Made by a program: the position numbers and the translations under genes. A stretch of 63,816 nt of DNA, the filler included, from Candidatus Rokuibacteriota bacterium (GTDB lineage Bacteria; JAUVQV01; DATDCY01), in NCBI GenBank assembly GCA_031406795.1. It is 7 parts of 7 records of this genome, joined end to end, with 100 filler letters (N's around TTAATTAATTAA, not from the genome) between each part and the next. Parts side by side here need not be neighbours in the genome. Positions count along the whole stretch, not along the records: positions 29,714 to 56,889 come from JANOHV010000093.1; 6 more parts are not named here. One strand, 5' to 3'. Position 1 is the stretch's first letter. Each line of letters starts with the position of its first letter. Positions 2,009 to 63,816 of the stretch are shown here, piece by piece. Under the pieces are notes generated by a model, which saw only the letters and a program-made list of their open reading frames with translations, made no database searches and was not told where the DNA came from.

Positions 2009-5000
2009 CTACCGCAGCGTGCCTCCCAGCGGGATGGTCCCGTCGAACCCGAACGTCGTCTGAGAGAACCCCTCCGTGCTCTTGAACAGGTACCAGTTGC
2101 CGCCGGTCGGATAGTAGACGCCGTAGTCATCGCGACCGTCACCGTCGAAGTCCCCGACAACCGGTTCCGTTCCCGCGTAGCCGAACGTCGTCTGCGAGAA
2201 GCCTTCCGTGCTCTTGAAGAGGTACCAGTTGCCGCCCGCCGGATAGTAGACGCCGATGTCGTCCCGACCGTCCCCGTCGAAGTCCCCGACCACCGGGATC
2301 GTGCCTGCGTAGCCGAACGCCGTCTGGAAGAAGCCTTCGGTGCTCTTGAACCGGTACCAGTTGCCGCCGGCCGGATAGTAAACGCCCAAGTCATCCCGGC
2401 CGTCCCCGTCGAAGTCCCCCACCACCGGGATCGTTCCTTCGAAACCGAACTGTGTCTGAAAGAACCCCTGGGCGCTCTTGAAAAGGTTCCAGTTGCCACC
2501 GATCTGATCGTAGACGCCGATGTCATCCCGGCCGTCCCCGTCGAAGTCGCCGACCACCGGGATCGTCCCTTCGTAGCCAAAGCCCGTCTCCTGGTGTCCT
2601 TCGGCGGTCTTCGAGAGGAACCACTTCCCGTGCTGATCGTCGTAGACCCCGATGTCATCCCGGCCGTCCCCGTCGAAGTCGGCCGCCACGGGGAGGGTTC
2701 CGGTGTAACCGAACTGCGTCTGACCAAACCCCTCCGTGCTCTTGAAGAGGTACCAACCGCCGCTGTCGGCGTGATAGGCGCCGATGTCCGTGCGGCCGTC
2801 ACCGTCGAAATCGTTCTTCGCGGCGTTTGCGCGGATCTGCTCCGTCACCTGCGGCGCGGCGTTGATGTTGCCGTCGCCGGCCTGGTCGAACGCCACCAGA
2901 CAGTCGCCGCTTGTAGCGGTCATCGTGACGGTCCCTGAACCCGTGCCGACGCCGCTGCACGCACCCGAGGCCGTGATCGCAACCGGCAAGCCGGATGTCG
3001 CCCTCGCCGACACCATGAAGCTGTCGCCGCGCCGCGCCCGCGCCGGGACGTGGTTGATCACGCTGATCGTCTGGGCGGAATTGAACGCGATGGCCGTCGA
3101 GAGCGCCGACCGGTTCCCCTCCGCGTCTGTGGCGCTCACGGCGATGGTATTGGATCCCGACTGAAAATTGGAGATCGACACGCTCCAATTCGTACCGCCG
3201 GCAATGACGACCGCTCCGGCCGTTACGGGAGGGGTCACCACCACCACCGGCACGATGCCGGCTTCGACCGTTCCGGAGACGATCTGCGTCGGCACGCCGG
3301 TCGGAGAGGCGACGGGATTGATGGTCAGAGCGGGCGCGCGCCAGTCCACGGTGATGCTCGTCGAGAGCGAGGTCAGGAGCCCTGCCGCGTCGACCGCGCT
3401 GACGGTGATGGTATTGTCCCCCTGCTGAAGATTCGAGACAAGCGAACTCCACGAGCTGCCCGAGACGAACGGCAGCGTGGCGGTCACCGGGAACGCGACC
3501 GTCACCACCGGCACGATTCCCGCCTCCACCGCGCCGGAGATGCTCTGCGTGGTCGTCGCGGTCGGGGATGCGACGGGGTTGAGGGTCAGCGACGGCGGCG
3601 TCGAATCGAGGGTGATGGTAACCGTCGCCGTCGTCAGAACGCCCAGAAGGTCGACGACGGTTGCCGTGACGACGTTCGCACCGTCGGCGAGCCCCGTCAC
3701 AAGAACATTCCAGTCAGCGTCGATCACGTTCACCCCGGCGACCGGGGTTCCATTGACCGTGATCGTCGGCGTCAATCCCGCCTCCACGGTGCCGGTGACG
3801 ACCTGGGTGGGGATCGAAGTCGGGGAGAGAACGGCGTTGATCATCAGGGTCGCCGACGGCGCCGGCACGCCGTCGGCGTCCGTGGCGGGCAGCCGGGTCA
3901 GGATTTCCGGCTCACCCTCCGGGAGGAGCAACTCCGGATGGTCGAAGGGAGCGGACTCGGCGGCAACCCGCGGGTCGGTCAGCGTTTTCATGAAGGCGAT
4001 CATGGCGGCGTGCATCGCCTCCTGGCCCTGGAGAAGGGGGAGCCCCCGGAAGATGACCGGGTCGATGTCGGCAAGATTATCGATGGGGAAGTTGCCGCCC
4101 CGTGTGTAGAAATCCATCACCCCATCGAGCGTCAGATCGCTGCCGTTGTGGAAGTAGGGGGCGGTGAGCTCGATGTTGCGCAGCGTCGGGGCCTTGAAGG
4201 CACCTTCTGCCGTCACGAGAAGACCAGGTGGGGTGAGCGGCGGAAAGAGCGGCGTGGCGAAGGGCAGACGGCTCTGATTCCACAGCTCGGCACGCCGCGA
4301 AAAGGAGAGCGGATACTGCGCGCCGGTCCGCGGATTCACGAAAGGCGTGGTTCCCCCCTGGCCGATGTCCTCCGTCGTCGGTCTGACGGCGGTGTTGTTG
4401 AAGCCGGTGTCGTAAATGGACGGCGCGCCGTTGGCGGTGAACATTATGTCGAATGCGCGGTTGTCGATGTTGTCCAGGAAGGCAACGCCATCGGCTGAGG
4501 CATTCGTGAAAACAGTACCGTCGTGGCACCCGGTGCATTCGCCGATGCCGGCGAAGAGCTGGAAGCCGGTCTGCTCCTGAGCAGTGAGTGCCGCGGGATC
4601 TCCGGCGAGCCATTGATCGAAGGGTGACTGATCGGAGACCAGGGTCGCCACATAGAGCTGGATCGCGAGTCCCCAGTACAGGGAGAAATTGGCTTCCATC
4701 TGGGTGTTGCCATCCGGCGTGAGATTGGCTGAGTTCCAGAGATTGTTCTGGAACGCGGCCTGGATCATCTGGGCATAGGTCGCGTTCAGCCCGTTCGCGC
4801 CGGAGATGCCCCCGCCCGGCAGGCTGGTTGCTCGGGAGAGAAGACCGAGCACGCTGTCGCCGGGGTGGACGACCTGACGGCCGAGCGGGGACAGACTCAG
4901 CATCTTTCGACCCAGCAGCGGGAAGGTGCGGCCCGCCGCGGACATCTCCGTGTCGTCGAGCGCCGGCCCGGTCGCCTGGGAGGCGAGGCTCGCGAACGGG

Positions 5001-32026: not shown

Positions 32027-32101
32027 CCGTAGGGGAGGGGTTCACCCCCTCCCGATATCTGCCAGGCCCGGACCGGGCGGGGATCAACCCCGCCCCTACG
32101 G
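32027..32101. repeat. GTAG-family REP doublet (REPIN-like)
   Basis: CCGTAGGGGAGGGGTTCACCCCCTCCC ... GGGCGGGGATCAACCCCGCCCCTACGG in inverted orientation. Confidence 0.75.
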
Positions 32102-32182
32102 ACCTCCATCGGCCTCGCTTCGCTCCCCCGCTGGAGGCCTCCCCTCCGCGCCACCCCTCCGCCGTGACTGTCACGCAAGCCG

Positions 32183-43726: not shown

Positions 43727-43776
43727 AGCTGGCCCACCGCGGCGGGGCGGTTCCCCGCAACGAAAAGGGGGGGAGC

Positions 43777-44160
43777 ATGGACAAGAAGCTGCTGAAACAC
43801 GGAATGTTCAGTTGGTTCGAATTGCTGACCTCGGACGTCAAGGGTGCGAAGAAGTTCTACAAGTCGCTCTTCGGCTGGAAGATTGCCGACGTGAAGATGC
43901 CGGGCATGAAATACACCGCCATCTCGGTGGGTGAGGAGCAGGTCGCCGGCATGATGTCGCTGCCCCCCAACGCGAAGAAAATGCCGCCGATCTGGGGCGC
44001 GTACGTCACGGTGGACGACGTGGACGCCACCGCGGAGAAGGCCGTGAAACTTGGCGGAAAGATTCTCGTGCCGCCCCAGGATATTCCGGGCGTGGGGCGC
44101 TTCTGCGTGTTCCAGGATCCTCAAGGGGCGATGCTCTCGGTCATCACCTACACGGGCTGA
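43777..44160 (+). CDS. VOC/glyoxalase family protein
   Basis: WFELLTSD, FYKSLFGW, DIPGVGRF, DPQGA. Confidence 0.9.
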   Translation: MDKKLLKHGMFSWFELLTSDVKGAKKFYKSLFGWKIADVKMPGMKYTAISVGEEQVAGMMSLPPNAKKMPPIWGAYVTVDDVDATAEKAVKLGGKILVPPQDIPGVGRFCVFQDPQGAMLSVITYTG

Positions 44161-44242
44161 GCGGCGGCGGCCGCGCCGAGAGAGCCGCGGGGCCGCGAAC
44201 GGAGCCACCCGCTCAGCGGCGTCGGGGCCATCCACCCGCGTT

Positions 44243-46175
<1,933 letters not shown>

Positions 46176-46312
46176 GGTGCTCGTCTCCCTCTGTGAAGAA
46201 TCATGTTCGTTGTCAGGTGCGGAAGACCTGTTCACCGTGGCGGAGCGACCCGCCCTCGCTCGTCCTGTTTCTTCAAACATCCCTCCTTCCGTTTGTTCAT
46301 TGGCTGGGCCGC

Positions 46313-46328
46313 AGCATTTTTAGTGCCA
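46313..46328 (-). promoter_or_regulatory. Sigma54 -24/-12 promoter of amtB-glnK (TGGCACTAAAAATGCT)
   Basis: GG-N10-GC spacing, with an AT-rich region upstream (46350-46460). Confidence 0.75.
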
Positions 46329-46533
46329 TGACTGTATGTAACTGATAATGCACTGTTTATTTCTATCTTAAAGCAGTGAGAGTAATTAAATGGTACTAAT
46401 AGGTCTGTATGTAAATATATTGATACTTAATGGTACTTAATATATTTGATGAGTTACGCAAATAGCATTTTTCAGCAACTGCCGCATTCGACGCTGTATC
46501 CCGGCAACCTGACGTACTTCTCGCCCAAACAAA

Positions 46534-47244
46534 TCACCCGAGCGCCCGCCGTGGCTCCCGAGCCCCGGGCTTGACCTCCAGTGTCTCCCCCGGAGGGCCT
46601 TGACGGATGACGCACCCGCCGTCATAACAGATAACGGTGTCGGCAAGCCTCATCGCCTCCCCGGCGTCATGGGTGACCAAGATCGTGGGGAGCCGCATCT
46701 CACGTTGAACCTCCCGGAGCAACTCGCCCATGTCGTAACGCAGGCGTGCATCGAGTGCCGAGAAAGGCTCGTCGAGAAGCAAGACCGCTGGTCGGCGCAG
46801 CAGCGCGCGGGCGAAGGCCACGCGCTGCCGCTGGCCACCGGAAATCTCGTCCGGACGGTGCTGCTGGAGACCGGCGAGGCCGAAGCGCTGGACGAGGTCC
46901 CGTGCCCGTGCGCCGCGCTCCTCACGCTCGAGGCCATGGCCCCCGTAGAGCACGTTCTCAAGGACCGTCATGTGCGGGAAGAGCGCAAGGTCCTGGAAGA
47001 CGTAGCCGATGGACCGCCGCTGCGGCGGCAGACACACCGCGCGAACTGTGTCGAACAGGATGGCATCTCCCGCTGCGACGCGGCCGGATTCCGGTCGTGC
47101 GAGCCCCGCAATCATCCGCAGCGTCAGGGACTTGCCGGCGCCCGAGGGCCCGAAAAGAACAGCCAAATCCGCGCCGATCTCCCAGGAGACGTCGAGTTCG
47201 AAGCCGGGCAGCCGCTTCCGCAGCGCCACGGCGAGCCCGTTCAC
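46534..47244 (-). CDS. modC: Molybdate ABC transporter ATP-binding subunit
   Basis: GPSGAGKS, ISGGQRQR, LLDEPFSALD. Confidence 0.88.
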   Translation of the reverse strand: MNGLAVALRKRLPGFELDVSWEIGADLAVLFGPSGAGKSLTLRMIAGLARPESGRVAAGDAILFDTVRAVCLPPQRRSIGYVFQDLALFPHMTVLENVLYGGHGLEREERGARARDLVQRFGLAGLQQHRPDEISGGQRQRVAFARALLRRPAVLLLDEPFSALDARLRYDMGELLREVQREMRLPTILVTHDAGEAMRLADTVICYDGGCVIRQGPPGETLEVKPGAREPRRALG

Positions 47245-47909
47245 GGCGTGCTCCGGGTCAGCCGGTTCGCGCCGAATAGCGCCAGCGCGGAGATGCCGGT
47301 GAAGAGCAGGACGAGGAGGTGTGCGCGTCCCCACTCGCCGCTGGCGACCGCCCCGTAAATCTCCAGCGGCATAGTGCTCGTCCGGCCCGGGATGTTCCCG
47401 GCGAGCATCAGCGTCGCGCCGAACTCCCCCATCGCCCGGGCGAAGGAGAGGACCGCGCCCGCGGCGATCCCGCGGCGTGCAAGGGGGAGCGTGACCCGCA
47501 ACACCGTCCAAGGCTCGGAATGACCGAGCGTGTACGACGCATCGACGAGCGTGCGATCCACGGCCTCGATCGCGGCGCGGCTCGTCTTGATCATGAAGGG
47601 GAGGGCGACCACGAAGGACGCCACAACCGCCGCCTGCCAGGTGAACATTACGCTCCAGCCGGTCCACCGGTACAAAGGCGCGCCAAGCAGACCATGCCGG
47701 CCGAGCAGCAGAATCAGGTAGTAGCCGACGACCGTCGGCGGCAAAACGAGAGGCAGGGTGACGAGCGCGTCAATCAACTCGCGCCCGAAAAAAGCGCGCC
47801 GCGCGAGCAGATAACCGGCGGGGATGCCGACGAGCGCGACCAGCGTCGTGGCGATGGCGGCGACCCGAACGGAAAGGGCGAGGGCTTCCAAGGCAGCCGT
47901 ATCGAACAT
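47241..47909 (-). CDS. modB: Molybdate ABC transporter permease
   Basis: LPLVLPPTVVGY, FARAMGEFGAT, AGNIPG. Confidence 0.93.
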   Translation of the reverse strand: MFDTAALEALALSVRVAAIATTLVALVGIPAGYLLARRAFFGRELIDALVTLPLVLPPTVVGYYLILLLGRHGLLGAPLYRWTGWSVMFTWQAAVVASFVVALPFMIKTSRAAIEAVDRTLVDASYTLGHSEPWTVLRVTLPLARRGIAAGAVLSFARAMGEFGATLMLAGNIPGRTSTMPLEIYGAVASGEWGRAHLLVLLFTGISALALFGANRLTRSTP

Positions 47910-47954
47910 ATTCCCCTCCCTCCCGGATTGCCGCCTGCCGGCTTGGTCGCAACG

Positions 47955-48743
47955 TCAGCGCGCGGCCGAAACCGGCGTGAACCCGTACCGGGCAAGAATG
48001 GCCTGGCCAGCTTCGGAGCGAACCGTTGCCACGAAGGCTTTCGCGGCTTCCCGCTGCGTTGAAGCTTTGAGGATGGCGATCGGGTAGATCACCGGGCGGT
48101 GGCTGCCGGGGGGCGCAACGGCGGCGATTTTTACCTCGCGGGGCCGCAATGCGGCGTCGGTTGCGTAGACCACGGCTGCGTCGACTTCGCCGCGCGCCGC
48201 ATAGTCCATCGCCTGCCGGACGTTCTCCGCAAGGATGAGTTTTGGCCGGATGGCCTCGGTAATCCCGACGCTCGAGAAGACTTCCTCGGCGTACCGCCCG
48301 GCCGGGCCGGTCTTCGGGTTGACGATCGCGATCCGGGAGATCCCCGGTGTCGCGAGGTCCGCAAAGGACAAGACCCTGGAGCCGGATGCGGAAGGAACAA
48401 CCAGCACTATTTCGTTGGCGGCGATGTCGGCGCGGGTCTCCGGCAAGAGTGCGCCTTGCGCCTCAAGGCCGTCCATGTCCTTTGCGGCCGCGGCGGCAAA
48501 AACATCCACCGGCGCCCCGCCCCGGATCTGCGCCACCAACTCCCCCGAAGCGCCGAAGTTAAAGGATGGCCGCGGCGCGGTGGCCCCGGCGGTGATGAGC
48601 ACCCCGATTTCCTCGAAGGCGCTCTTGAGGCTCGTCGCTGCCGAGACCACGATGGCATCGGCGGCCGCCGCCGGGACCGGCAGCAGGGCGAGGGGCGCGA
48701 TAAGCGTAGCAACCGCGCACAGGATGGCGAGTGTCTCTCTCAT
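47955..48743 (-). CDS. modA: Molybdate ABC transporter substrate-binding protein
   Basis: SAATSL, FGASG, PAGRYA, ENVRQA, VYATDA. Confidence 0.93.
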   Translation of the reverse strand: MRETLAILCAVATLIAPLALLPVPAAAADAIVVSAATSLKSAFEEIGVLITAGATAPRPSFNFGASGELVAQIRGGAPVDVFAAAAAKDMDGLEAQGALLPETRADIAANEIVLVVPSASGSRVLSFADLATPGISRIAIVNPKTGPAGRYAEEVFSSVGITEAIRPKLILAENVRQAMDYAARGEVDAAVVYATDAALRPREVKIAAVAPPGSHRPVIYPIAILKASTQREAAKAFVATVRSEAGQAILARYGFTPVSAAR

Positions 48744-48758
48744 GGTGTCATCTCCCGC

Positions 48759-49640
48759 TCAAACATTGTCGCAATATTCTTCGCCGACCTGTGCGAGAAC
48801 CGCTTCGGTCTCCATGTCGCGGTCTTCGCCGAGCAGGCCGCAGGCATCTGAACGGCACTGTCGGCAGTGGTTGATGAGCGGCAGGTGCGGTCCGCAGCGC
48901 GTGCGCATGGCGTGGATCTGCGCTGGCGTCGGCGGCGCCACGCTGGCGAACTCCCCCTGCGCGATCAGCGGCGTGATGTTCATGACATTGACGCCGCAGG
49001 CCGCGGCGCGCGCGGCGATCAGCGGGATCTCGGTCTCGTTGACGCCGGGAACGAAGACACTGTTGACCTTGACGACGATGCCGGCCTCGTCCGCCCGTCG
49101 CAGTCCTTCCCACTGGCGTTCGACCATCAGGCGCCCCGCGTCGTGGCCGAAGAAGGTGGTTCCGCCGTAGCGGGCCCAGCGGTAGATCTTCGCGGCGGTC
49201 TGCGGCAGAAGCGCGTTCACCGTGACGGTCAGCGTCAGCCGGTGCAGCCGCTTCAGTTCGTCGATGACCTCGGGGAGCATCAAGCCGTTCGTCGAGAGGC
49301 AGAGCGTGACCTCCGGGAACTCGGCGTCGACCATCCCGAGCACCTGGAGCGTCTCGGGGTTGGCCAGCGGGTCGCCGGGTCCGGCGACGCCGATCACGCC
49401 GAGACGGCCGTCGCGCTCGACGACCGCGCGGACCCGCTCCATTGCCTCCGCGGCGCCGAGCACCACCGAGGCCACGCCAGGTCGCGACTCGTTGACGCAG
49501 TCGAACTTGCGGACGCAGTAGCGGCACTGGATGTTGCACTTGGGCGCCACCGGCAGGTGAATGCGTCCGTACTTGCGGTGCGCGCCGACATTAAAGCAGG
49601 GGTGTCGCTCGATGACGCTCAGATCCTTGTGCACCGCCAT
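48759..49640 (-). CDS. nifB: FeMo-cofactor biosynthesis radical SAM protein NifB (short form, no NifX domain)
   Basis: HPCF, LPVAPKCNIQCRYC, NESRPGV, AGPGDPLAN, CRQCRSDA. Confidence 0.93.
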   Translation of the reverse strand: MAVHKDLSVIERHPCFNVGAHRKYGRIHLPVAPKCNIQCRYCVRKFDCVNESRPGVASVVLGAAEAMERVRAVVERDGRLGVIGVAGPGDPLANPETLQVLGMVDAEFPEVTLCLSTNGLMLPEVIDELKRLHRLTLTVTVNALLPQTAAKIYRWARYGGTTFFGHDAGRLMVERQWEGLRRADEAGIVVKVNSVFVPGVNETEIPLIAARAAACGVNVMNITPLIAQGEFASVAPPTPAQIHAMRTRCGPHLPLINHCRQCRSDACGLLGEDRDMETEAVLAQVGEEYCDNV

Positions 49641-49671
49641 GACCCTTCTCCTTCGTCCCGGGCGCGTCGAA

Positions 49672-49956
49672 TTACGCCGCCGGCGCGTGCGTATAGCACT
49701 TCTTGGCACAGATGCGCGCGCAGGCCTCGCAGCCGATGCAGTCGCCGCGGTCCTTCACGCTCATCACCTTGTTGCCCATGCGGTCGCCGAACTCGTCGTC
49801 ATCGTCGCCTGCGAACGGCTTCTCCACGAGCGCGAGGACTGCGCGCCCGCAGGCCTTGTAGCACCGGCCGCAGCCGATGCAACGCTCGGGGTCGACGGAG
49901 ACGACGAACCGCGGTGTCCATTCCCGTCCGCCACAGGTCACCGGCATTTCGTTCAC
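49672..49956 (-). CDS. fdxB: nif-specific ferredoxin III
   Basis: WTPRFV, CIGCGRCYKAC, CIGCEACARIC. Confidence 0.88.
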   Translation of the reverse strand: MNEMPVTCGGREWTPRFVVSVDPERCIGCGRCYKACGRAVLALVEKPFAGDDDDEFGDRMGNKVMSVKDRGDCIGCEACARICAKKCYTHAPAA

Positions 49957-49969
49957 GGCGGCTCCTCTC

Positions 49970-50392
49970 CTAGGCGATAGCTGCGTCGCCGCGTTCGCCG
50001 GTGCGGATGCGCACGGCGTCCTCGATCGGCAGCAGGAAGATCTTCCCGTCGCCGTAGCGGCCACTGCGGTTGATCCCGACCACGGTCTCGACGACCCGCT
50101 CTGCCGGGACCTCGGAGACCACGATGTCGAGCAGGCTTTTCGGGACCCAGCAGACCGGCTTGGTCAGCGTCGATGCGCCGGCCATGCTCGACGGGGTCGG
50201 GAATTTCCAGATCTTCGAGACCGACTCGATGTTGCCGCGCATCAGCGGGTCGACGACCTCCATGATGTTTCCGCCCTGCTTGCCGCGCCCGTGCACGGTG
50301 TGCACGGTGACCGAGTCGACGCCGACGCCCGAGAGCGCCTCGAGCGTCTCCTTGACTTTGTCCTGCCGGATGATGGCGAAGATCTCTCTCAC
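49970..50392 (-). CDS. nifI2: NifI2-type P-II protein
   Basis: VREIFAIIR, GRGKQ, VPKSLLDIVV, GDGKIF. Confidence 0.8.
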   Translation of the reverse strand: MREIFAIIRQDKVKETLEALSGVGVDSVTVHTVHGRGKQGGNIMEVVDPLMRGNIESVSKIWKFPTPSSMAGASTLTKPVCWVPKSLLDIVVSEVPAERVVETVVGINRSGRYGDGKIFLLPIEDAVRIRTGERGDAAIA

Positions 50393-50703
50393 AGCCCTGC
50401 CCCCGTGCGGACGGTGACGGCCTCGTCGATGGCGCTGACGAAGATCTTCCCGTCGCCGATGAAGCCGGTCTTCGAGACGTCGGTGATCACGCCGAGCACC
50501 TTGGTAACGTCGTCGTCGTTGACGACGAGCAGCAGCAGAATCTTTGCCAGCATGTCGTAGTGCACCGGGCCGACCTGCAGCCCCTTCTGCTTGCCGCGGC
50601 CGAAGACGTGGGCCTTGGTCATCGCCGGGAAACCCGCCCCTTCGAGGGCGAGGACGACATCGTGCTCCTTCTCGGGCCGGATGATTGCTCGGACCATCTT
50701 CAT
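50389..50703 (-). CDS. nifI1: NifI1-type P-II protein
   Basis: MKMVRAIIRPEK, VFGRGKQKG...YD, GDGKIFV. Confidence 0.85.
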   Translation of the reverse strand: MKMVRAIIRPEKEHDVVLALEGAGFPAMTKAHVFGRGKQKGLQVGPVHYDMLAKILLLLVVNDDDVTKVLGVITDVSKTGFIGDGKIFVSAIDEAVTVRTGAGL

Positions 50704-51131
50704 CGCGCTTCTCCTTTTGTTTCGTGCGTTGCGTTGGCATGCGGCTTCAAAGCGAGGCGGAGCCAGGGCGGCGGCGCCGTACGGATCTGTTCCATGAGGC
50801 GTTCGGCAGACTCGAGAATGACGGTCCGCTCGGGGACCTTGACCGGCATGATCCCCAGCCGGGCCATGCGGGCTGCGGCGGGGCCGCCGATCGCCGTCAT
50901 GTAGACCAGGCGGCAGTCGCGGAGCCGCTCGACCTTCTGCACGATGGCGTTATCGTGCGCGTCGCCCTGGCCGCGCGTGCCCTCGACGGCCGCGTCCCGA
51001 CCTTCGGCGAAAACCAGATCCGGGAGCGGCGTGTAGCCCGCCATCGTGAAATCTAGGATCGCGAAGCGGCCGGCCCGGCCGAAGTGTTCATCGATCAGGC
51101 AGCCGTCCGTGGTCGCGAAAGCAACTTTCAT
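50700..51131 (-). CDS. nifX: NifX
   Basis: MKVAFATTD, DEHFG, AIGGPAAAR, PPPWL. Confidence 0.9.
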   Translation of the reverse strand: MKVAFATTDGCLIDEHFGRAGRFAILDFTMAGYTPLPDLVFAEGRDAAVEGTRGQGDAHDNAIVQKVERLRDCRLVYMTAIGGPAAARMARLGIMPVKVPERTVILESAERLMEQIRTAPPPWLRLALKPHANATHETKGEAR

Positions 51132-53704
51132 GGGGCACCTCCGTTCATGGCGTTGCCGATGTCGTTGACGAGGCCGAGGGTGCCCCGATAGCCGATATTG
51201 ACGCGCTGGCAGTGACCGAGTCGCTCGAAGACCGGAAATCCCCAGACAAAATGTGCGGCATGCAGGTCGCGCGCCGGGAGCTCCCCGTGGGAGCCGGCAA
51301 CGAGCAGGTCGACGCCCTGTTCGAGAGTGGCGTAGTCGCCGACGTCGACGCGCCGCGCGTTGATGGTGCCCAGAGCGGGCGATCTTGTAGGAACGACCGC
51401 CTGGTTCACCATGGCGTTCATCTCCGCAAGCAGCCCGGCGATAGCGACCGCCGCATCTGTTTCCAGCGCGAGGGCCGCGCGCCGGCCGCCGAACGCGGTC
51501 ATGGCATCGCGCATGCAGTCGACAACGATTCGACGCTCTCGCAAGAAGCGCTGGGGGGTGGGGATCCCCCCGGCGCTCGCGAGTAGTTCGAAAAAGGCAT
51601 CAACTGTGGCGAGGCCGATCGGGTAGGGCAGAACCTTGAACGGCACGCCGCAAGTCTGTTCCAGGTAGGCTGCGGCACCGGCGAGGCTCGCGCCGAGCGC
51701 AATCGTCAGGCCGGCGCTACCCATGGCGCGGATCGCGGCAAGCGGCGTGCCGCCCGAGGCGAGTGCGGAGTAATCACTGCGGCCGCCCTCGAGAGCCGAA
51801 AGATCAGGGAGGATGGTCGCCGTCAGACCGAAGGCGTCGGCTATCGCGCGCAACTCACGGCAGTCTGCGGGAGTCAGGCCGGGGCCGGCGAGGATGTTCA
51901 CGCGCCGTTCGTGCCGGCTGCCTGGGGTTGCCAGTCCCACCAACGCCTTGACCGCGGCGGCGAATCCCTCCTCAAGGCCTCCCGTGTAGTCAGGCGTCGA
52001 GATGGGGAGTATGACGGCCGATCCCGTGTCGATCCCGCGTAACGCGGAAACCGGCTCGTCCCCCTTGACCTCGGAGAGGCCGGAGGAGAGCGTGGCGACA
52101 AGGTCGGGCTTCTGATTTTCGAGCGCGCTGCGCACCGCGGCGGCGAGCAACTCCGGACCGCCGAGCACGAGGTCCTCCGAAAAGACTTTCGTCGATACAA
52201 GCGCGATCGGCTCGTGGAAGTGCTTCGTCAGCAGCACTTTCCCGAGAAAGGAGCAGCCTTGTGCGCCGTTGTGGACGACGGCGGCACGGTCGACGCCCTG
52301 CAGCGCCATCGCGGCACCGATGGCGGGCGAGTGGCGCAGCGGGTTGGTGCTCAGGGAGCGCTTGGATGCAGGGGTCACCCGCGGGGCGGGGGCTGCGACG
52401 CCCTCGCGGCCGATGCGGTAGAACTCGATCGCCTCGGTCATCCGCTGGGCAAGGTTCACGAGGCCTTCGTATCCGGCATACGCCGTGTGCCGCTCCTGGT
52501 TGGCATCGATGAAGGGGAAGCCCTCCTTGATCGCCAGGTACTGATTACGGCCGCCGGCGACCAGAATGTCCGCGCCGCTCTCGGCCATCAGGGTGCGGAT
52601 CTTCGCCGGCGACATGTTTTCGTGCAGCGGGGCGTCGGGTCCGAGGATCGCGCGCATCTTCTGCTCGTCCTCGTACGTGGCCTTCTTCGTGCCGACCGCG
52701 GCCAAGCTCAGTCCCAGGTCCTGGAGCGCGGAGATGAATGACCAGCTCTTGACGCCGCCGGTGTAAAGGACAGCCTTCTTTCCCGTCAGCGCGGCGTAGG
52801 GAGCAAGACGCTCGGCGAGGCGGTCCTCCTCCTCGCCGATGAGCGCCTCGACGCGGGCCGGCAGCAATGGGTCGCGCGAAACGAGAGCGGCGGCCATCGC
52901 TCGCAACGATCGGGCGATCTGCGTGCGGCCGAAGAAGGAGGCCTCGACGTACGGGACGCCCCAGCGCCGCTGCATCCCGCGAGCGACGTTGATCAGTGCC
53001 CGGCCGCAGACGACAACATTCAGATGTGCCCGGTGCGCGCCGCGGATCTCCTCGAAGGCGGCGTTGCCGGTGAGCCGGGCGTGGACGGTGATGCCCGCGC
53101 GCTCGAGCAGCGGCTCGATGAGGTCCTGATCGCCGGCAATGTTGTACTCGCCGACCAGGTTCACCGCGAGCGGTGCGACGGCGTCCGGTTCGGCCGTCCC
53201 GATCACGCGCTCGAGAAGCACCTCCCCGGCCATGCGGTTGCCGAGGTTCTTCGGACCGACAAAGCCCGGCGCGTCAACCGGGAGCACCGGGAGCCCCAGC
53301 TCGGCTTCGGCCTCGCGGCAGGCGGCGTGGATGTCCTCGCCGATCATGCCGGTGACGCAGGTTGCATAGACGAAGATCGCCCGCGGGCGGGCATCGCGCG
53401 CCGTCTCACGAATCGCTGCGCGCAGCTTTGCGGCCGCGCCGTAGACGATGTCCAGCTCCGAAAGGTCGGTCGTGTACGCCCGGCGGTGCAGTTCGCCCTT
53501 GGTCGTGCGTGTCCCGCGCGACTCCCAGGAGTTGCCGAGGCAGGCGATCGGGCCGTGCACCAGGTGTGCGGCATCCGCAATGCAGCCGAGCACGATCATC
53601 GCGCCGTCGAACGCGCACGACTCCCCCCCGCGCTGGCGGCAGACGCCGTTCATGGCGTCCGGCCGGCACGCGTCGGTAAACAATCGCTCCGTGGTGGCGG
53701 TCAT
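51128..53704 (-). CDS. nifEN: Fused NifE-NifN scaffold
   Basis: NifE: CAFDGA, HGPIAC, YTGGVKSWS, NQERH; NifN from STNPLRHSPAIGA, GAQGC, GFPVFERLG. Confidence 0.93.
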   Translation of the reverse strand: MTATTERLFTDACRPDAMNGVCRQRGGESCAFDGAMIVLGCIADAAHLVHGPIACLGNSWESRGTRTTKGELHRRAYTTDLSELDIVYGAAAKLRAAIRETARDARPRAIFVYATCVTGMIGEDIHAACREAEAELGLPVLPVDAPGFVGPKNLGNRMAGEVLLERVIGTAEPDAVAPLAVNLVGEYNIAGDQDLIEPLLERAGITVHARLTGNAAFEEIRGAHRAHLNVVVCGRALINVARGMQRRWGVPYVEASFFGRTQIARSLRAMAAALVSRDPLLPARVEALIGEEEDRLAERLAPYAALTGKKAVLYTGGVKSWSFISALQDLGLSLAAVGTKKATYEDEQKMRAILGPDAPLHENMSPAKIRTLMAESGADILVAGGRNQYLAIKEGFPFIDANQERHTAYAGYEGLVNLAQRMTEAIEFYRIGREGVAAPAPRVTPASKRSLSTNPLRHSPAIGAAMALQGVDRAAVVHNGAQGCSFLGKVLLTKHFHEPIALVSTKVFSEDLVLGGPELLAAAVRSALENQKPDLVATLSSGLSEVKGDEPVSALRGIDTGSAVILPISTPDYTGGLEEGFAAAVKALVGLATPGSRHERRVNILAGPGLTPADCRELRAIADAFGLTATILPDLSALEGGRSDYSALASGGTPLAAIRAMGSAGLTIALGASLAGAAAYLEQTCGVPFKVLPYPIGLATVDAFFELLASAGGIPTPQRFLRERRIVVDCMRDAMTAFGGRRAALALETDAAVAIAGLLAEMNAMVNQAVVPTRSPALGTINARRVDVGDYATLEQGVDLLVAGSHGELPARDLHAAHFVWGFPVFERLGHCQRVNIGYRGTLGLVNDIGNAMNGGAP

Positions 53705-53734
53705 GATCGTGTTGTCCTGTCGCGTCTTCGTTCG

Positions 53735-55165
53735 TCAGCGCAGCAATTCGAAATGCGCGTCGTCGCAGGTGCGGTCGACCTGCTCGATCAGCGCGTTGGC
53801 GATCCAGGTGATCAGGTTGATCGTCCCGCGGTAGCCGATCGTCGCATAGCGGTGCAGGTTCACCCGATCGACAATCGGGAAGCCGATGCGCACGTGCGGG
53901 ATGCCGGCATCGCGTGCCGCGTACTTGCCGTGGCTGTTGCCGATCAGCAGGTCCACCGGCTCGGTCATCAGCAGCGAGCGCAGGTGCCAGAGGTCGCGGC
54001 CGGCGTGCACCTGGCCTTCCGTGCCGAACGGCGAGGAGGCGAGCAGCGCCTGCATCTGGGCCGCCCACTTCTTCGTCCCGTTCGTCGAGACGATGTGTAC
54101 CGGTTCGGCGCCCATCTCGAGGAGAAAGCTCACGAGGCCGAGCAGCGGGTCGGGATCGCCGAAGAGGGAGATGCGCTTGCCGTGGAAGTAGGGGTGGGCG
54201 TCGGTCGCGGCATCGACCGCGCGGCCGCGCTCGGCCCGGATTGCTGCCGGTATCGGGCGCCCGGACATCTCGGAGAGCGTGGTGAGGAACCCGTCGAATG
54301 CGCCGATGCCCATCGGGGAGTGGAAAGCCTTCGTCTTCTGCCCCCACGTGCCTGAGAAGGCGGCGAGCGTCTTGGTCGTCGCGTAGGCCTGCAGCGAGAT
54401 CGTCGCCGCGGCGTTGACGCACTCGGCGGTTTCTTCGAGAGTCGTGCCGCCGTGATACATCGTGTACTCCCCGGAGAGCGGCGAGTCGAAGGACTCGCTG
54501 TTGTCGGCGAGCACCGTGACCGGGGCGCCCATCAGCGCGGCATAGCGGCGCAGTTCGCGGATGTTCTCCACGTGGGGGTCGAAGCCGGGAATGAGGTTCA
54601 CTGTTGCCGTGCGCTCGCCCTCGCGGTACTGCCCGGCGGAAAGCGCCTCGACGATGCCGAGCAGCATGCTGTCGTAGCCGGTGATGTGCGAACCGATGAA
54701 GCTCGGCGTGTGCGCGAGCGCCACCGGGAAACCCTTCGGCACCGATCCGGCTTCGCGCGCTCCGTCGAGGAAGGCCTTGAGATCGTCGCCGATGACCTCC
54801 GCCATGCACGAGGTGCAGACCGCGATCATCGCGGGCTTGTAGATGTCGTGGGCGTTCTTCAGCCCCTCGACCATGTTCGCGCGCCCGCCGAAGACCGCCG
54901 CATCCTCGGTCATCGAGTCGGAGACCGCGGGAAACGGCTCGCGGTAGTGCCGCGAGAGGTTGTTCCGGAAATACGCCGTGCAGCCCTGCGAGCCATGCTC
55001 GTAGGGGAGCGTTCCCTCGAAACCGGCCGCCGCGAAGAAGGCGCCGAGGGGCTGGCAGGCCTTCGTCGGGTTGATCACCAGGGCCTTGCGCGCGAAGTTC
55101 AGGTCCTTGTACTCGACGGTGTTGATCCACGCCGCCGTTGCCATCGTCGTGCTTACGTCGCTCAT
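53735..55165 (-). CDS. nifK: Nitrogenase MoFe protein beta chain
   Basis: INPTKACQPLG, HGSQGC, MTEDAAVFGG, CMAEVIGDDL, TPSFIGSH, RIGFPIVDR; AGGAGG RBS. Confidence 0.95.
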   Translation of the reverse strand: MSDVSTTMATAAWINTVEYKDLNFARKALVINPTKACQPLGAFFAAAGFEGTLPYEHGSQGCTAYFRNNLSRHYREPFPAVSDSMTEDAAVFGGRANMVEGLKNAHDIYKPAMIAVCTSCMAEVIGDDLKAFLDGAREAGSVPKGFPVALAHTPSFIGSHITGYDSMLLGIVEALSAGQYREGERTATVNLIPGFDPHVENIRELRRYAALMGAPVTVLADNSESFDSPLSGEYTMYHGGTTLEETAECVNAAATISLQAYATTKTLAAFSGTWGQKTKAFHSPMGIGAFDGFLTTLSEMSGRPIPAAIRAERGRAVDAATDAHPYFHGKRISLFGDPDPLLGLVSFLLEMGAEPVHIVSTNGTKKWAAQMQALLASSPFGTEGQVHAGRDLWHLRSLLMTEPVDLLIGNSHGKYAARDAGIPHVRIGFPIVDRVNLHRYATIGYRGTINLITWIANALIEQVDRTCDDAHFELLR

Positions 55166-55210
55166 CTCGAATCCCTCCTTGCGGGGTTGCATTCCGTTGT
55201 CACCGCAATC

Positions 55211-55225
55211 GCAATGCCCGTGCCA
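55211..55225 (-). promoter_or_regulatory. Consensus sigma54 promoter TGGCACGGGCATTGC directly upstream of nifK
   Basis: Exact TGGCACG-N4-TTGC match 46 bp above the nifK ATG. Confidence 0.85.
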
Positions 55226-55439
55226 GATGCCGTAAAAGCGAAATACACTGTGATGGCAAATGGTTGCGAATATCGCTGCCGATTGTGCGCTGCGCTGATG
55301 TCCGACACGAATGTGGTGTTACGACAAAGATGTGCGTTGCGGGCAAGATCGGGAAGTCGTCGCGCAATGGTCTCGACGCCGCGGAAATGATATTATATTA
55401 GTAGTGAATCGGCAACAGGCGTAATGAGAGGAGGGTCTT

Positions 55440-56021
55440 ATGGACGAATCCTCGGTGCAAAGCGTCATCGACAACCTGCGGGCCATGATCGAGCTCTCGA
55501 ACCTCGAAAAAGAGGTGCCATGGCAGCAATGGATCGAGTCCACGGTCCATAAGCGCGAGATTCGTTGCTGGGAGAAAACCAACTGCGGGAAGACCACGTG
55601 CCCCGCCTATCAGAGCGAATGCGGGCGCTGCTGGCTGATCGCCGGCACGCTCTGTGCCTGCGAGGTGACCGGCGAGAAGGCTCGGAAGATCGAAAGTTGT
55701 CTCAAATGCGAAGTATTTCAGGGCGCTATCGCAGCCGATCCTGCGGTCGAATTGCAGGAACTCCTGATCATCCTCGTGTACAACCTGCGCGAAAATCGTC
55801 GCCGTCTGGCCGAGACGCGCAAGGAGGTCAGATTACTCGAGGGGCTGCTGCCGATCTGCGCCGCCTGCAAGAAGATCCGCGACAGCGAACAGCGCTGGCA
55901 CCCGCTGGAATCGTACATCCACGACCATTCGATGGCGGAATTCAGTCATGGTCTCTGCCCCGATTGCCTGCCGATCTATTTCACGCCCGAAGGGGAGCCC
56001 CCGAACAAGAAAACGGAATGA
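55440..56021 (+). CDS. Cys-rich signalling protein: two-CW-type domain plus LPICxxCKKIR...HGxCPxC domain
   Basis: CWEKTNC...CPAY...CGRCWLIAGTLC...CLKC; C-terminus homologous to that of 37873-38871; GAGG RBS. Confidence 0.8.
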   Translation: MDESSVQSVIDNLRAMIELSNLEKEVPWQQWIESTVHKREIRCWEKTNCGKTTCPAYQSECGRCWLIAGTLCACEVTGEKARKIESCLKCEVFQGAIAADPAVELQELLIILVYNLRENRRRLAETRKEVRLLEGLLPICAACKKIRDSEQRWHPLESYIHDHSMAEFSHGLCPDCLPIYFTPEGEPPNKKTE

Positions 56022-56091
56022 CGGTTTCGCGCCCGCTCAGCCGCCGTCAGGGGTACCCGCGTGCAGGCGTTCGGGGCGCAGGTGGCAGGCC

Positions 56092-56185
56092 CTACGCGGC
56101 GAAGGGGTCCTTGACCAGTTTCCAGGCCGGGGAATTGATGGCCATGTCCATGTCGCGGGCGAAGATCGGGAAACCCGTCGTACCC
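56092..56185 (-). pseudogene. nifD: 3' remnant of nifD (about 30 codons, with a +1 frameshift)
   Basis: GYDGF / PIFARDMDMAINSPAWKLVKDPFAA* matches the NifD C-terminus. Confidence 0.8.
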
Positions 56186-56311
56186 GATGGGTTCCTCCAC
56201 CTCGTCCTCGGTGCCCTTGCAGGCTGCTAAAGAGCGGAGTCTGGCGTAGAATGCGCAATGAGTGGCAATGGCTCAGGATTAAGAAGCAGCCTACTTGAGG
56301 AGAGGTGCAGC

Positions 56312-56889
56312 ATGTCAGCGAAAAACCGAGATTCCGCCATGATCCACCCCGACGCGGGTCTGGCGGAAGGCATCACCGAGGTTCGACGCCAGGAGGCTTT
56401 GCTGAAGACCGGGGCCTTGCAGAACGCGATTTTGAACAGTGCCAACTTTTCAAGTATCGCCACCGACGAGAAGGGGGTCATTCAGCTGTTCAATGTCGGC
56501 GCCGAGCGCATGCTGGGCTACACGGCCGCCGATGTGGTGAACAAGATCACCCCGGCCGACATTTCCGATCCTCAGGAATTGATTGCGCGCGCAATGTCGT
56601 TGAGTGTCGAGCTCGGCACCCCGATTACGCCGGGCTTCGAGGCCCTGGTGTTCAAGGCCTCGCGCGGCATCGAGGACATTTACGAGCTGACCTATATCCG
56701 TAAAGACGGCAGCCGCTTCCCGGCCATCGTGTCGGTCACGGCGCTGCGCGACGCGCAGGACGCCATCATCGGCTATCTGCTGATCGGCACGGACAACACC
56801 GCCAGCAAGCGGGCCGAAGAGGCGCTTCTCAAGGCGGGAGCGCTTCAGAGCGCGATCTTCAACAGCGCCAACTTCTCGAGCATCGCCAC
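56312..56889 (+). CDS. Multi-PAS sensor protein, 3' truncated
   Basis: IQLFNVGAERMLGY, RKDGSRFP; the ALLKxGALQxAIxNSANFSSIA unit repeats. Confidence 0.85.
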
Positions 56890-62232: not shown

Positions 62233-62778
62233 ATGCACCTGGTCATAGCCACGCAGCGCCCCTCGACGAACGTCATCACCGGCATCATCAAGGCGAACCT
62301 GCCGGTGCGTATGTCCTTCAACGTCTCGTCCAAGATCGACTCGCGCGTCGTGCTCGACGCCAACGGCGCGGAGCTGCTGCTCGGCAAGGGCGACATGCTC
62401 TACCTGCCGCCGGGGACCAACAAGCTCGAACGCATCCACGGCGCGTTCGTCTCCGAGGACGAGGTCAAGCGGCTCGTCGAGCACCTCAAGGGCCAGGCGC
62501 AGCCGACCTACAATGAGGCGCTGCTGCAGCCGCCGCCGGCGGACGCCGCCGAAGCCGAGGGCGGGGACGGCGAGCAGGACGAGATGTACGACCAGGCCGT
62601 CGCGGTCGTCTCCGAGAGCGGCCAGGCCTCGATCTCGTACGTCCAGCGCCGGCTCAAGGTCGGCTACAACCGCGCCGCGCGGATGATCGAGGCGATGGAG
62701 AAGGCCGGCCTGATCGGCCCGGCGGACGGCGCCAGGCCGCGCAAGATCCTCGCGCGCCGCAATTACGACGAGGAGTAG
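62233..62778 (+). CDS. ftsK: FtsK/SpoIIIE DNA translocase, C-terminal part with gamma domain
   Basis: [43 protein letters not shown]. Confidence 0.93.
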   Translation: MHLVIATQRPSTNVITGIIKANLPVRMSFNVSSKIDSRVVLDANGAELLLGKGDMLYLPPGTNKLERIHGAFVSEDEVKRLVEHLKGQAQPTYNEALLQPPPADAAEAEGGDGEQDEMYDQAVAVVSESGQASISYVQRRLKVGYNRAARMIEAMEKAGLIGPADGARPRKILARRNYDEE

Positions 62779-62882
62779 TTAATCCCCATATTCTGCGGTT
62801 CTCAAGTGCTCTTGTCGCCCGATCAAACTTGAATGTGCCGAACCTGCGACCAGGTCCGTCATGTGGCAGTATTTTTATCATG

Positions 62883-62911
62883 TTGACTAATTTTATCGTT
62901 GTGGCTATTTT
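62883..62911 (+). promoter_or_regulatory. Sigma70-like promoter TTGACT-N17-TATTTT for mqsRA
   Basis: Correct spacing; predicted +1 falls at or next to the mqsR ATG (62918). Confidence 0.5.
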
Positions 62912-62917
62912 CTGGCC

Positions 62918-63226
62918 ATGGAGAAGCGATCTCCGCACTACCATGTTGAGGAAGTTCAGCGGGTAGTGGCCGATCCGGAGAGTCGCCCCTTTACGATGAC
63001 CGCGTTGCGCGGTGGTTTGGAGTTGGGATTGACCGAGCCCGAGATGAGGCGGACGGTGATGGGACTCCGGCGTGACAATTTCTACAAATCGATGACCACC
63101 CGCGTTGATCATCGATGTTGGCAGGATGTGTATCACGGGGAGACCGAGAGCGGCGCCGCCGTGTACATCAAGATAACGGCATGTGGCGATGATCGTCCTC
63201 CGGTCATTCAGTTCAAAGCAAGGTGA
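62918..63226 (+). CDS. mqsR: MqsR-family mRNA interferase toxin
   Basis: MEKRSPHY, FYKSMTT, WQDVYH, YIK, VIQFK. Confidence 0.92.
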   Translation: MEKRSPHYHVEEVQRVVADPESRPFTMTALRGGLELGLTEPEMRRTVMGLRRDNFYKSMTTRVDHRCWQDVYHGETESGAAVYIKITACGDDRPPVIQFKAR

Positions 63227-63236
63227 GGAGGTATCC

Positions 63237-63632
63237 ATGGAATGCCCTGCGTGCGGCACCGCCGCGATAGTGGCGAAGGAGTGCGACGAGACCCTGACCT
63301 ACGGGGGACAATCGCTGACCCTGCACGGGATGCGGGGCGATTTCTGCACCGCGTGCGGCGAAGGAACCTGGGATTCCTTGAGCTACCGGCGCTACACGGA
63401 GGCGCAGGCGTCCCTTCTCCGCGCCGTGAAAGGCGACGTGAGCGCCGATATCCGCCGCATTCGCAAGGGCCTCAACCTCACGCAGAGCGAACTCGCCGGG
63501 GTCTTCGGCATCGGTAAAGTGGCGTTCTCCCGCTACGAACGCGGCGAAACACGTCCCCCTGCACCCCTGGTGAAACTCCTTCGGCTGGTGGAGCGCCATC
63601 CTGAATTGCTCAAGGAGATGACGTCGGTGTAG
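63237..63632 (+). CDS. mqsA: MqsA-family antitoxin (zinc finger + HTH)
   Basis: CPACG...[26 protein letters not shown]. Confidence 0.92.
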
Positions 63633-63652
63633 CCGCCGGCCATTGTCTCCAA

Positions 63653-63816
63653 ATGATCCTGGCCCAGAGCGAGGCCGAGGACTCGATCACGCGGCTGGCG
63701 CAGCTCTCGCGCGCCGTCGGCATGCACCTGGTCATAGCCACGCAGCGCCCCTCGACGAACGTCATCACCGGCATCATCAAGGCGAACCTGCCGGTGCGTA
63801 TGTCCTTCAACGTCTC
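63653..63816 (+). repeat. ftsK: Second internal ftsK segment; 63722-63816 is identical to 62233-62327
   Basis: [34 protein letters not shown]; 95-bp exact direct repeat at the two contig ends. Confidence 0.88.

Follow-up and report, generated by a model that had tools for sequence, protein, structure and literature searches.

In the draft genome of a Candidatus Rokuibacteriota bacterium (GCA_031406795.1), the nitrogenase gene nifK, encoding the beta chain of the molybdenum-iron (MoFe) protein, does not follow a complete nifD but heads what appears to be a transcription unit of its own, behind a sigma54-type promoter; nifA, nifH and a complete nifD are found on a second contig, where nifH has a promoter of matching layout. 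On the sequence evidence, our preferred reading is that the nifK unit was detached from nifHD within one genome, to which we assign a probability of roughly one half. The stretch of DNA analysed here (the window) is 63,816 bases long and consists of seven contigs, with six spacer blocks between them, each made of two 44-N runs around 12 bases. The nif genes lie at the right end of the contig occupying positions 29714-56889 (C6; 27,176 bases), and the sequence past 56889 belongs to other contigs, so that the "chimeric contig end" invoked by the initial annotation of this region is simply an N-joined boundary of the window. The draft (278 contigs totalling 4,106,450 bases, with ratings of 99.91% for completeness and 3% for contamination) contains all of nifHDKENB, with nifK, nifE, nifN and nifB on C6 and nifH and nifD on a separate contig, C258; the draft is strain-mixed. 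The features at the right end of C6, in window positions, are as follows.

48759-51131, minus strand: nifX, two P-II family genes, the nif-specific ferredoxin III gene (fdxN) and nifB (TIGR02663, PF00543 twice, TIGR02936, TIGR01290).
51128-53704, minus strand: fused nifEN, 858 amino acids (NF011047, 895.9 bits; TIGR01283, 507.7 bits; TIGR01285, 334.2 bits).
53735-55165, minus strand: nifK, MoFe protein beta chain, intact, 476 amino acids (TIGR01286; open reading frame as called, 53735-55192).
55211-55225, minus strand: putative sigma54-type -24/-12 promoter of nifK, TGGCACGGGCATTGC, matching the motif TGGCA[CT]-N5-TTGC.
55304-55327, minus strand: candidate upstream activator-type element, TTGTCGTAACACCACATTCGTGTC, 102 nucleotides (nt) before the -24 box.
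55335-56060, plus strand: inserted cassette with a Cys-rich gene and its own leader, the edges lying at about 55335-55365 and 56031-56060.
55440-56021, plus strand: Cys-rich gene, 193 amino acids, divergent from nifK, with a two-CW-like N-terminal region and a C-terminal Cys/His module.
56063-56091, minus strand: leftover of the post-nifD spacer, aligning to the 32 nt after the nifD stop of C258 and to the congeneric genome G003.
56092-56186, minus strand: nifD 3' remnant of 95 nt, with 27 codons and the stop in frame and about three more codons upstream.
56187-56199, no strand: junction between the nifD remnant and the region upstream of a PAS gene; nifD homology ends at 56186.
56313-56889, plus strand: 5' portion of a sensor gene with several PAS modules, truncated where the contig stops (PAS_9, PAS, TIGR00229; GGAGAGG before the ATG at 56313).

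The nifK gene is intact, as had been proposed from the sequence at the outset. Its product reaches 678.9 bits against TIGR01286 (cut-off 427.3), covering 42-504 of the 516 profile positions. It aligns over nearly its whole length with solved MoFe beta chains, for which the score is 547 bits, and the motifs CQPLGA, GSQGC and T-CMAEVIGDD, which we take to be the conserved P-cluster-binding Cys motifs of NifK, align identically with a solved NifK chain. Translation likely starts at the ATG at 55165, preceded 7 nt upstream by AGGAGG, and less likely at the in-frame ATG at 55192. The genes that follow, identified with NCBIfam or Pfam, form a minus-strand run nifK-nifEN-nifX-PII-PII-fdxN-nifB-modA. 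With respect to the NCBIfam cut-offs, nifK and fdxN are well above and nifE and nifN just above, the nifEN-fusion model, nifX and nifB being below; nifB, represented by the radical-SAM part of 316 amino acids, falls short of its cut-off (308.7 bits; 343.65 needed), which is explained by the NifX-like C-terminal domain being a separate gene here. The P-II gene pair (49970-50703) follows nifX and is not placed between nifH and nifD, an order conserved in Nitrospirota-type clusters (loci L011-L016, L019 and L025-L028).

The closest of all the relatives found is a locus, L008, whose NifK is 95% identical (90% for nifK at the nucleotide level) and which likewise lacks nifD upstream of nifK. In a comparison of C6 with L008 by a custom Nei-Gojobori script, the ratio of nonsynonymous to synonymous substitutions (dN/dS) was 0.084 for nifK, 0.136 for nifEN, 0.236 for nifX and 0.11 and 0.08 for the two P-II genes, with dS of 0.25-0.67 and no stops in the compared nif genes. 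None of the seven downstream genes is disrupted, and the comparison with L008 indicates purifying selection on them; since neither locus has nifD upstream of nifK and the genes are nevertheless kept by selection, the detached nifK unit seems to have been kept in use. The region 48759-55327 is predicted to be a working nifK-nifEN-nifX-PII-PII-fdxN-nifB transcription unit with its own sigma54 promoter.

That nifK has a sigma54 promoter of its own, already suggested by the initial annotation, is supported by the box at 55211-55225, which ends 46 nt before the ATG and places GG and GC 10 nt apart in TGGCAC-N5-TTGC, just upstream of a gene. Counting both strands, the 4,106,450-base assembly contains only 23 copies of the motif TGGCA[CT]-N5-TTGC, mostly just upstream of a ribosome-binding site and start codon, and one copy precedes nifK and one nifH; rpoN was found in the genome. 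Counterparts of the nifK box are TGGCACGGCCATTGC, conserved, in L008 and TGGCACGCGCCGTGC, a variant, in G003. Within 55100-56400 a terminator scan returned 0 sites, and the only sigma70-like match lies on the minus strand at 55415-55387. Further upstream, the pattern TTGTC-N8-ACR-N4-TGTC is present exactly twice in the draft, once ahead of the nifK box at a distance of 102 nt and once, on C258, ahead of the nifH box at 104 nt, and it can be read in all five nifH and nifK leaders (5/5) of the draft, L008 and G003; its genome-wide uniqueness is suggestive and is not a test. The classical NifA site TGT-N10-ACA, usually about 80-150 nt upstream of the promoter, was not present in the three nifK leaders scanned, and at a fitting distance there is an element containing TGT-N9-ACA. 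Furthermore, the nifH leader of C258 carries a lineage-specific TTCGTGTCG core that recurs in the C6 and L008 nifK leaders and is missing from those of G003.

The partner genes are on C258 (6,607 bases), which carries an ammonium-transporter-like gene (it matches such genes; NCBIfam made no call), a P-II gene, nifA (566.8 bits, cut-off 528.85), nifH (473.6, cut-off 394.35) and nifD (801.6, cut-off 653.55), the last covering profile positions 2-466 of 466 and ending in its own stop; a sigma54 box and an upstream element stand before nifH at a spacing that matches that of nifK. Therefore nifH and the full nifD are both in the bin, intact. A whole-genome search found exactly one each of nifH, nifD, nifK, nifE and nifN, the only nifH and the only nitrogenase alpha/beta-family gene outside C6 both being on C258; further copies of nifK, nifE or nifN, or of the leader or start of nifK, are absent from the bin. 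Only 32 nt of C258 follow the nifD stop, so that the contig breaks off within a stretch homologous to C6, and a search for its continuation with the last 300 nt matched only C6.

On C6 itself, as first noticed, nifD survives upstream of nifK only as a frameshifted C-terminal piece, and neither nifH nor any additional nifD was found on this contig before unrelated sequence begins. One extra base near 56177 shifts the frame of the remnant ahead of its 27 in-frame codons. The stretch 56186-56063 is 89.6% identical to the last 125 nt of C258 (E 8e-40) and the remnant is 85.5% identical to G003; its positions 56141-56172 are identical to C258 nifD, forming a 32-nt direct repeat between the two contigs. 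The single synteny break inside C6 falls at about 56187. The tail of the remnant has no significant match in L130, L132 and L042, and the PAS leader (56187-56480) gave no match in G001-G003 and G041, in a search without a positive control. An 8-bp inverted pair (56221 and 56285, ending at 56292), pointed out at the outset, is present near the junction but at chance level, 116 such pairs within 100 nt occurring in the 27,176-nt contig. The PAS modules of 56313-56889 match the ends of contigs C95 and C191 at 87-93% and per-run contigs with summed depths of 2,000-80,000; a very abundant repeated PAS sensor module probably caused the break of C6 at this point.

To our knowledge, almost all diazotrophs keep nifD and nifK adjacent and co-transcribed, and nearly all the relatives conform to this rule. 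The nif genes of C6 and C258 are most similar to those of Nitrospirota draft genomes, which provide the nearest named loci, with the order nifA-H-D-K-EN-X-PII-PII. Among the 22 loci collected by a NifK search with one genome per species, 21 show a match to NifD immediately upstream of nifK, at most about 390 nt away, and nifD directly precedes nifK in G003 as well. In three of these loci (L014, L016 and L019) nifH, nifD or nifEN match in several adjacent pieces, which suggests frameshifts in those assemblies. The exception is L008, where nifK is preceded by about 170 nt of homologous leader, then by a glyoxalase-family gene and a type I restriction-modification system, and where the 19-kb contig holds no nifD. 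The glyoxalase-family gene has an 82% identical counterpart (nucleotide level; window 43729-44197 against L008 5240-5716), which in C6 lies about 10 kb downstream of the nif-mod-amtB-glnK block, and in L008 directly upstream of nifK. From this position, the L008 junction corresponds to the two ends of block 43729-55334 meeting each other, which a tandem duplication or a circular form of that block would produce. The bin of L008, G041, was considered as a source of the partner nifHD and rejected: its contig C38 has a NifK 95% identical to that of the window, and its contig C236 has a NifH and a NifD fragment only 74% and 67% identical to those of C258, so that this copy belongs to another organism, C38 and C236 probably deriving from different ones.

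Among three genomes of the same genus, only G003 has a nitrogenase, with nifA-H-D-K-EN-X-PII-PII on one contig. Its nifD-nifK spacer is 371 nt long and includes a GC-rich hairpin after nifD and the box TGGCACGCGCCGTGC about 45 nt before nifK. In 13 spacers scanned (L009-L020 except L008, plus G003, with nine loci at 53-55% identity left out), only that of G003 has a sigma54-like box, the other 12 being 15-234 nt long. A contiguous nifHDK with an internal box implies that the separate nifK promoter is older than any split; in our reading, a second NifA-dependent promoter, serving nifK and the cofactor genes, arose in this genus ahead of any physical split. The suggestion that the split itself had given rise to the separate regulation does not hold, because the congener with contiguous nifHDK already has the internal promoter.

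The Cys-rich gene between the remnant and nifK, on the plus strand as first described, is a 0.7-kb insertion between nifD and the nifK leader and not a nif gene, given its orthologues in non-nif contexts and the relatives that are free of it. In fact, homology of the nifK leader to L008 ends at 55334 and homology to the nifD flank of C258 resumes at 56063, and the cassette is missing from both G003 and L008. A 1,077-nt metagenome contig (L050) has a 93% identical orthologue, with similarity over about 55365-56030, dissimilar sequence outside and a CobW/HypB/UreG-type GTPase gene upstream, and the same-genus genome G002 (88% complete, no nitrogenase-family match) has a 75% identical one between DUF4416 and M28 peptidase genes. 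Among 80 metagenome loci kept, L050 alone matches over the full length; the others share the C-terminal Cys/His module of about 60 residues, which also ends many longer sensor-like frames. The protein resembles NF045718 (two_CW_domain; 32.6 bits, below the cut-off of 35, hence a resemblance only), has no Pfam family, and in a protein atlas falls nearest to a cluster named "hypothetical protein" (0.98), with no function named. Our guess is that it is a small metal- or redox-binding regulator.

These observations can be arranged in a sequence of events. The genus would first have acquired a wider nifD-nifK spacer with a promoter inside it, ahead of any rearrangement, and this promoter-bearing spacer would then have been a tolerated breakpoint. 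In the present lineage a 0.7-kb Cys-rich cassette landed in the spacer, and a later rearrangement would have cut nifD about 95 nt from its end, so that the remnant, now frameshifted, became joined to the leader of a PAS sensor gene. The nifA-nifH-nifD of C258 would be the partners, on the same chromosome as C6. NifA, encoded beside nifH, would activate the nifK unit, and the identical promoter layout on C258 would drive nifHD, so that NifD and NifK would come from two promoters working in parallel under common regulation, instead of from a single nifHDK messenger. Of the options first put forward, a natural split with separately regulated nifHD and nifK and a relocation of nifHD fit best, owing to nifA-H-D on C258 and the matching promoters; a recent loss of nifHD keeps some support from the mixed strains, the 10% difference of the remnant and a cassette-less form described below.

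The junctions were compared with contigs built run by run by another assembler, for which depth is one figure per contig; the comparison covers X1-X5 (X1-X3 come from a possible source study) of the 20 runs listed, of which 0 are recorded as RNA, X6-X20 having small shares of the stretch. X1 record 2 (997 nt) is exact over 55109-56105 and X2 record 13 (262 nt) over 56137-56398, the latter spanning the 32-mer, the extra base, the nifD end and the start of the PAS gene; an exact match across the junction means that the nifD remnant adjoining the PAS leader exists in reads. The joint between cassette and leader is bridged in two other studies, by X4 record 20 (55163-55454, 12 differences) and X5 record 28 (55290-55440, 10 differences). 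X4 record 23 (632 nt) is 92% like 56200-56457, with its other 374 letters off the stretch; as it is similar only from 56200, it reveals a relative that has the PAS leader without a nifD remnant. X1 is without depth at 56217-56293 and there is no second nifK-like depth in 54600-54753, gaps which carry no weight and which do not warrant taking the cassette-less contig described below for a truncated 5' copy of nifK behind the nifD of C258.

Several points weigh against a detachment within one genome. C258 and C6 are separate contigs, and their 125-nt overlap is only 89.6% identical, which speaks against a recent duplication because the two copies of one chromosome would then be expected to hardly differ; C258 is 6.6 kb long and might come from the minor strain. 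The draft, despite its rating of 3% contamination, has the look of a blend of close strains: about 25 pairs of distinct contigs overlap over 400-1,544 nt at 92-98% identity, mostly at contig ends (one pair being the start of C6 with C201, 95.3% over 531 nt), which is the signature of co-assembled strains. The L008 junction has neither remnant nor cassette, and its split may be a separate event; the junctions of C6 and L008 thus differ, and a very recent loss in C6 would give the same dN/dS. The upstream element was defined post hoc from the same five leaders in which it is read. Positions 56106-56136 are in no listed exact record, continuity there resting on the draft assembler. Finally, a cassette-free contig from X1 and X2 runs from a nifD 3' end at 56076 to 55328-55299 and on into the nifK start, although these joints, with 85% likeness and 30-letter sides, could come from another organism. 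A C258-like loose end in X4 begins to align at 56076, the same position as the cassette-less joint, and a 14-nt piece of it is nowhere in the draft.

The alternative that survives best, possible although we hold it only tentatively, is that two populations were combined. The strain of C6 would have lost nifA-nifH and most of nifD by deletion or rearrangement, and would be non-fixing or reliant on a nifHD that was not assembled, whereas C258 would derive from a binned close relative keeping a contiguous, cassette-free nifA-H-D-K. The overlapping contig pairs, the cassette-less joint in X1 and X2 and the end of C258 within C6-homologous sequence, 32 nt past the nifD stop, would all be explained, as would the 10% difference between the remnant and the nifD end of C258, which includes two indels; the X4 relative with a 92% identical PAS leader and no remnant suggests, in addition, that the truncation is young. 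However, the bin of such a mixture contains no second nifK, nifE, nifN or nifK leader copy, and the depths of the two forms are similar (10.1 for the cassette-less form against 13 for the C6 form in X1, 6.8 against 5 in X2). The nifH leader of C258 shares the TTCGTGTCG core with the nifK leaders of C6 and L008 and not with the G003 leaders, and the seven downstream genes are intact and under purifying selection against the also detached L008, a pattern which a very recent loss would, however, leave unchanged.

Less is to be said for a misassembly, which we regard as improbable. In this case the true order would be nifH-nifD-cassette-nifK in one piece, with the PAS flank misjoined inside the conserved nifD end. 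The junction is indeed 14 nt from the 32-nt stretch that is identical in C258 and common to many nifD genes, where depth is 56-623; the per-run contigs break at 56105 and 56137, and coverage is low, at 5-13x. Yet X2 record 13 is exact over 56137-56398, takes in both frameshift and junction and has the C6-type base at 56140, immediately beyond the 32-mer; the sequence across the junction is not nifD of any kind, as it would be in the usual chimera between organisms, and the C258 end is unlike the C6 flank, about 8 of 80 nt differing after the 32-mer.

We likewise see little chance that the nifD end of C258 and the remnant of C6 are the two ends of one large insertion in a single chromosome. A circular element with a copy of the nifD 3' end and spacer would have integrated by recombination in the shared 32-nt core (56141-56172), with a complete nifD at one end and a displaced remnant at the opposite end, in the manner of integrative elements that rebuild the 3' end of a target gene; as the extra base is on the element side of the core, recombination back would rejoin an in-frame nifD to the cassette and nifK. 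No recombinase gene was seen in 56187-56889 (about 700 nt). If true, this would be a non-cyanobacterial counterpart of the nifD element. A developmentally excised nif element of the cyanobacterial type finds no support in the nifD of C258, which is not interrupted (801.6 bits, positions 2-466 of 466, own stop).

Two further features of the assembly may be recorded. A dispersed repeat of 70-100 nt, with copies 80-94% identical, occurs across many contigs of the draft, at 3909-4006 and 1794-1866 of C258 (locus L044), at window 32096-32163 and at more than 40 other places; one copy lies in the nifA-nifH spacer of C258, and weaker copies are found in the same-genus G002 and G003. The 1,584-base contig at window 62233-63816 has the same FtsK/SpoIIIE-like coding stretch at both ends, the peptide being read from 62233 and from 63653 and also on the opposite strand at both ends; it could represent a circular path or an artefact of repeats.

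NifD and NifK are joined in equal amounts in a single tetramer. Returning to the nifK unit as detached from nifHD, the fact that insertions and breaks are tolerated between the two genes suggests that a balanced supply of the subunits does not depend on co-transcription, and a lineage with a duplicate NifA/sigma54 promoter bears on the refactoring of nif clusters. There is also a warning for surveys: in strain-mixed drafts, calls of diazotrophy that need a contiguous nifHDK can go wrong, and so can those accepting any bin with all six genes. In a literature check that was not thorough, we found no description of a cut between nifD and nifK combined with a duplicate NifA-type promoter and a complete nifD elsewhere, and passages of PMC8399215 make no mention of a nifD/nifK split.

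How does this arrangement compare with known systems? The reference is the canonical nifHDK operon of the Klebsiella and Azotobacter type, under NifA/sigma54 control. The structural and cofactor genes and the -24/-12 promoter type are the same, and a NifA equivalog is encoded in the same draft; unlike the canonical operon, nifK is not behind nifD and has its own promoter, the activator-type element is TGT-N9-ACA and not TGT-N10-ACA, nifE and nifN are fused, and two P-II genes come after nifX. The Nitrospirota-type loci (L009-L019) and G003 are closer, with the order nifA-H-D-K-EN-X-PII-PII and with NifK 70-82% and NifD 77-87% identical, but there nifD directly precedes nifK, only G003 has the long spacer with a sigma54-like box, and none has the cassette. 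In slow-growing rhizobia nifH is apart from nifDK, and C6 and C258 resemble them in having the structural genes in separate NifA-dependent units; the rhizobial cut, however, falls between nifH and nifD, so that the MoFe subunits are still co-transcribed, whereas here it falls between nifD and nifK. Anabaena and other heterocystous cyanobacteria carry a nifD interrupting element, and such an element is reported for Calothrix NIES-4101 (PMC11249958). As with these elements, a 3' piece of nifD stays with nifK, nifH and nifD are elsewhere and both places share 32 nt; in contrast to them, the nifD of C258 is complete with its own stop, the remnant is frameshifted and the host is not a cyanobacterium, and excision is not needed, because the distant nifD is complete. 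Split nif structural genes as such are already known, and the arrangement of C6 and C258 is a modest variation on the single nifHDK unit.

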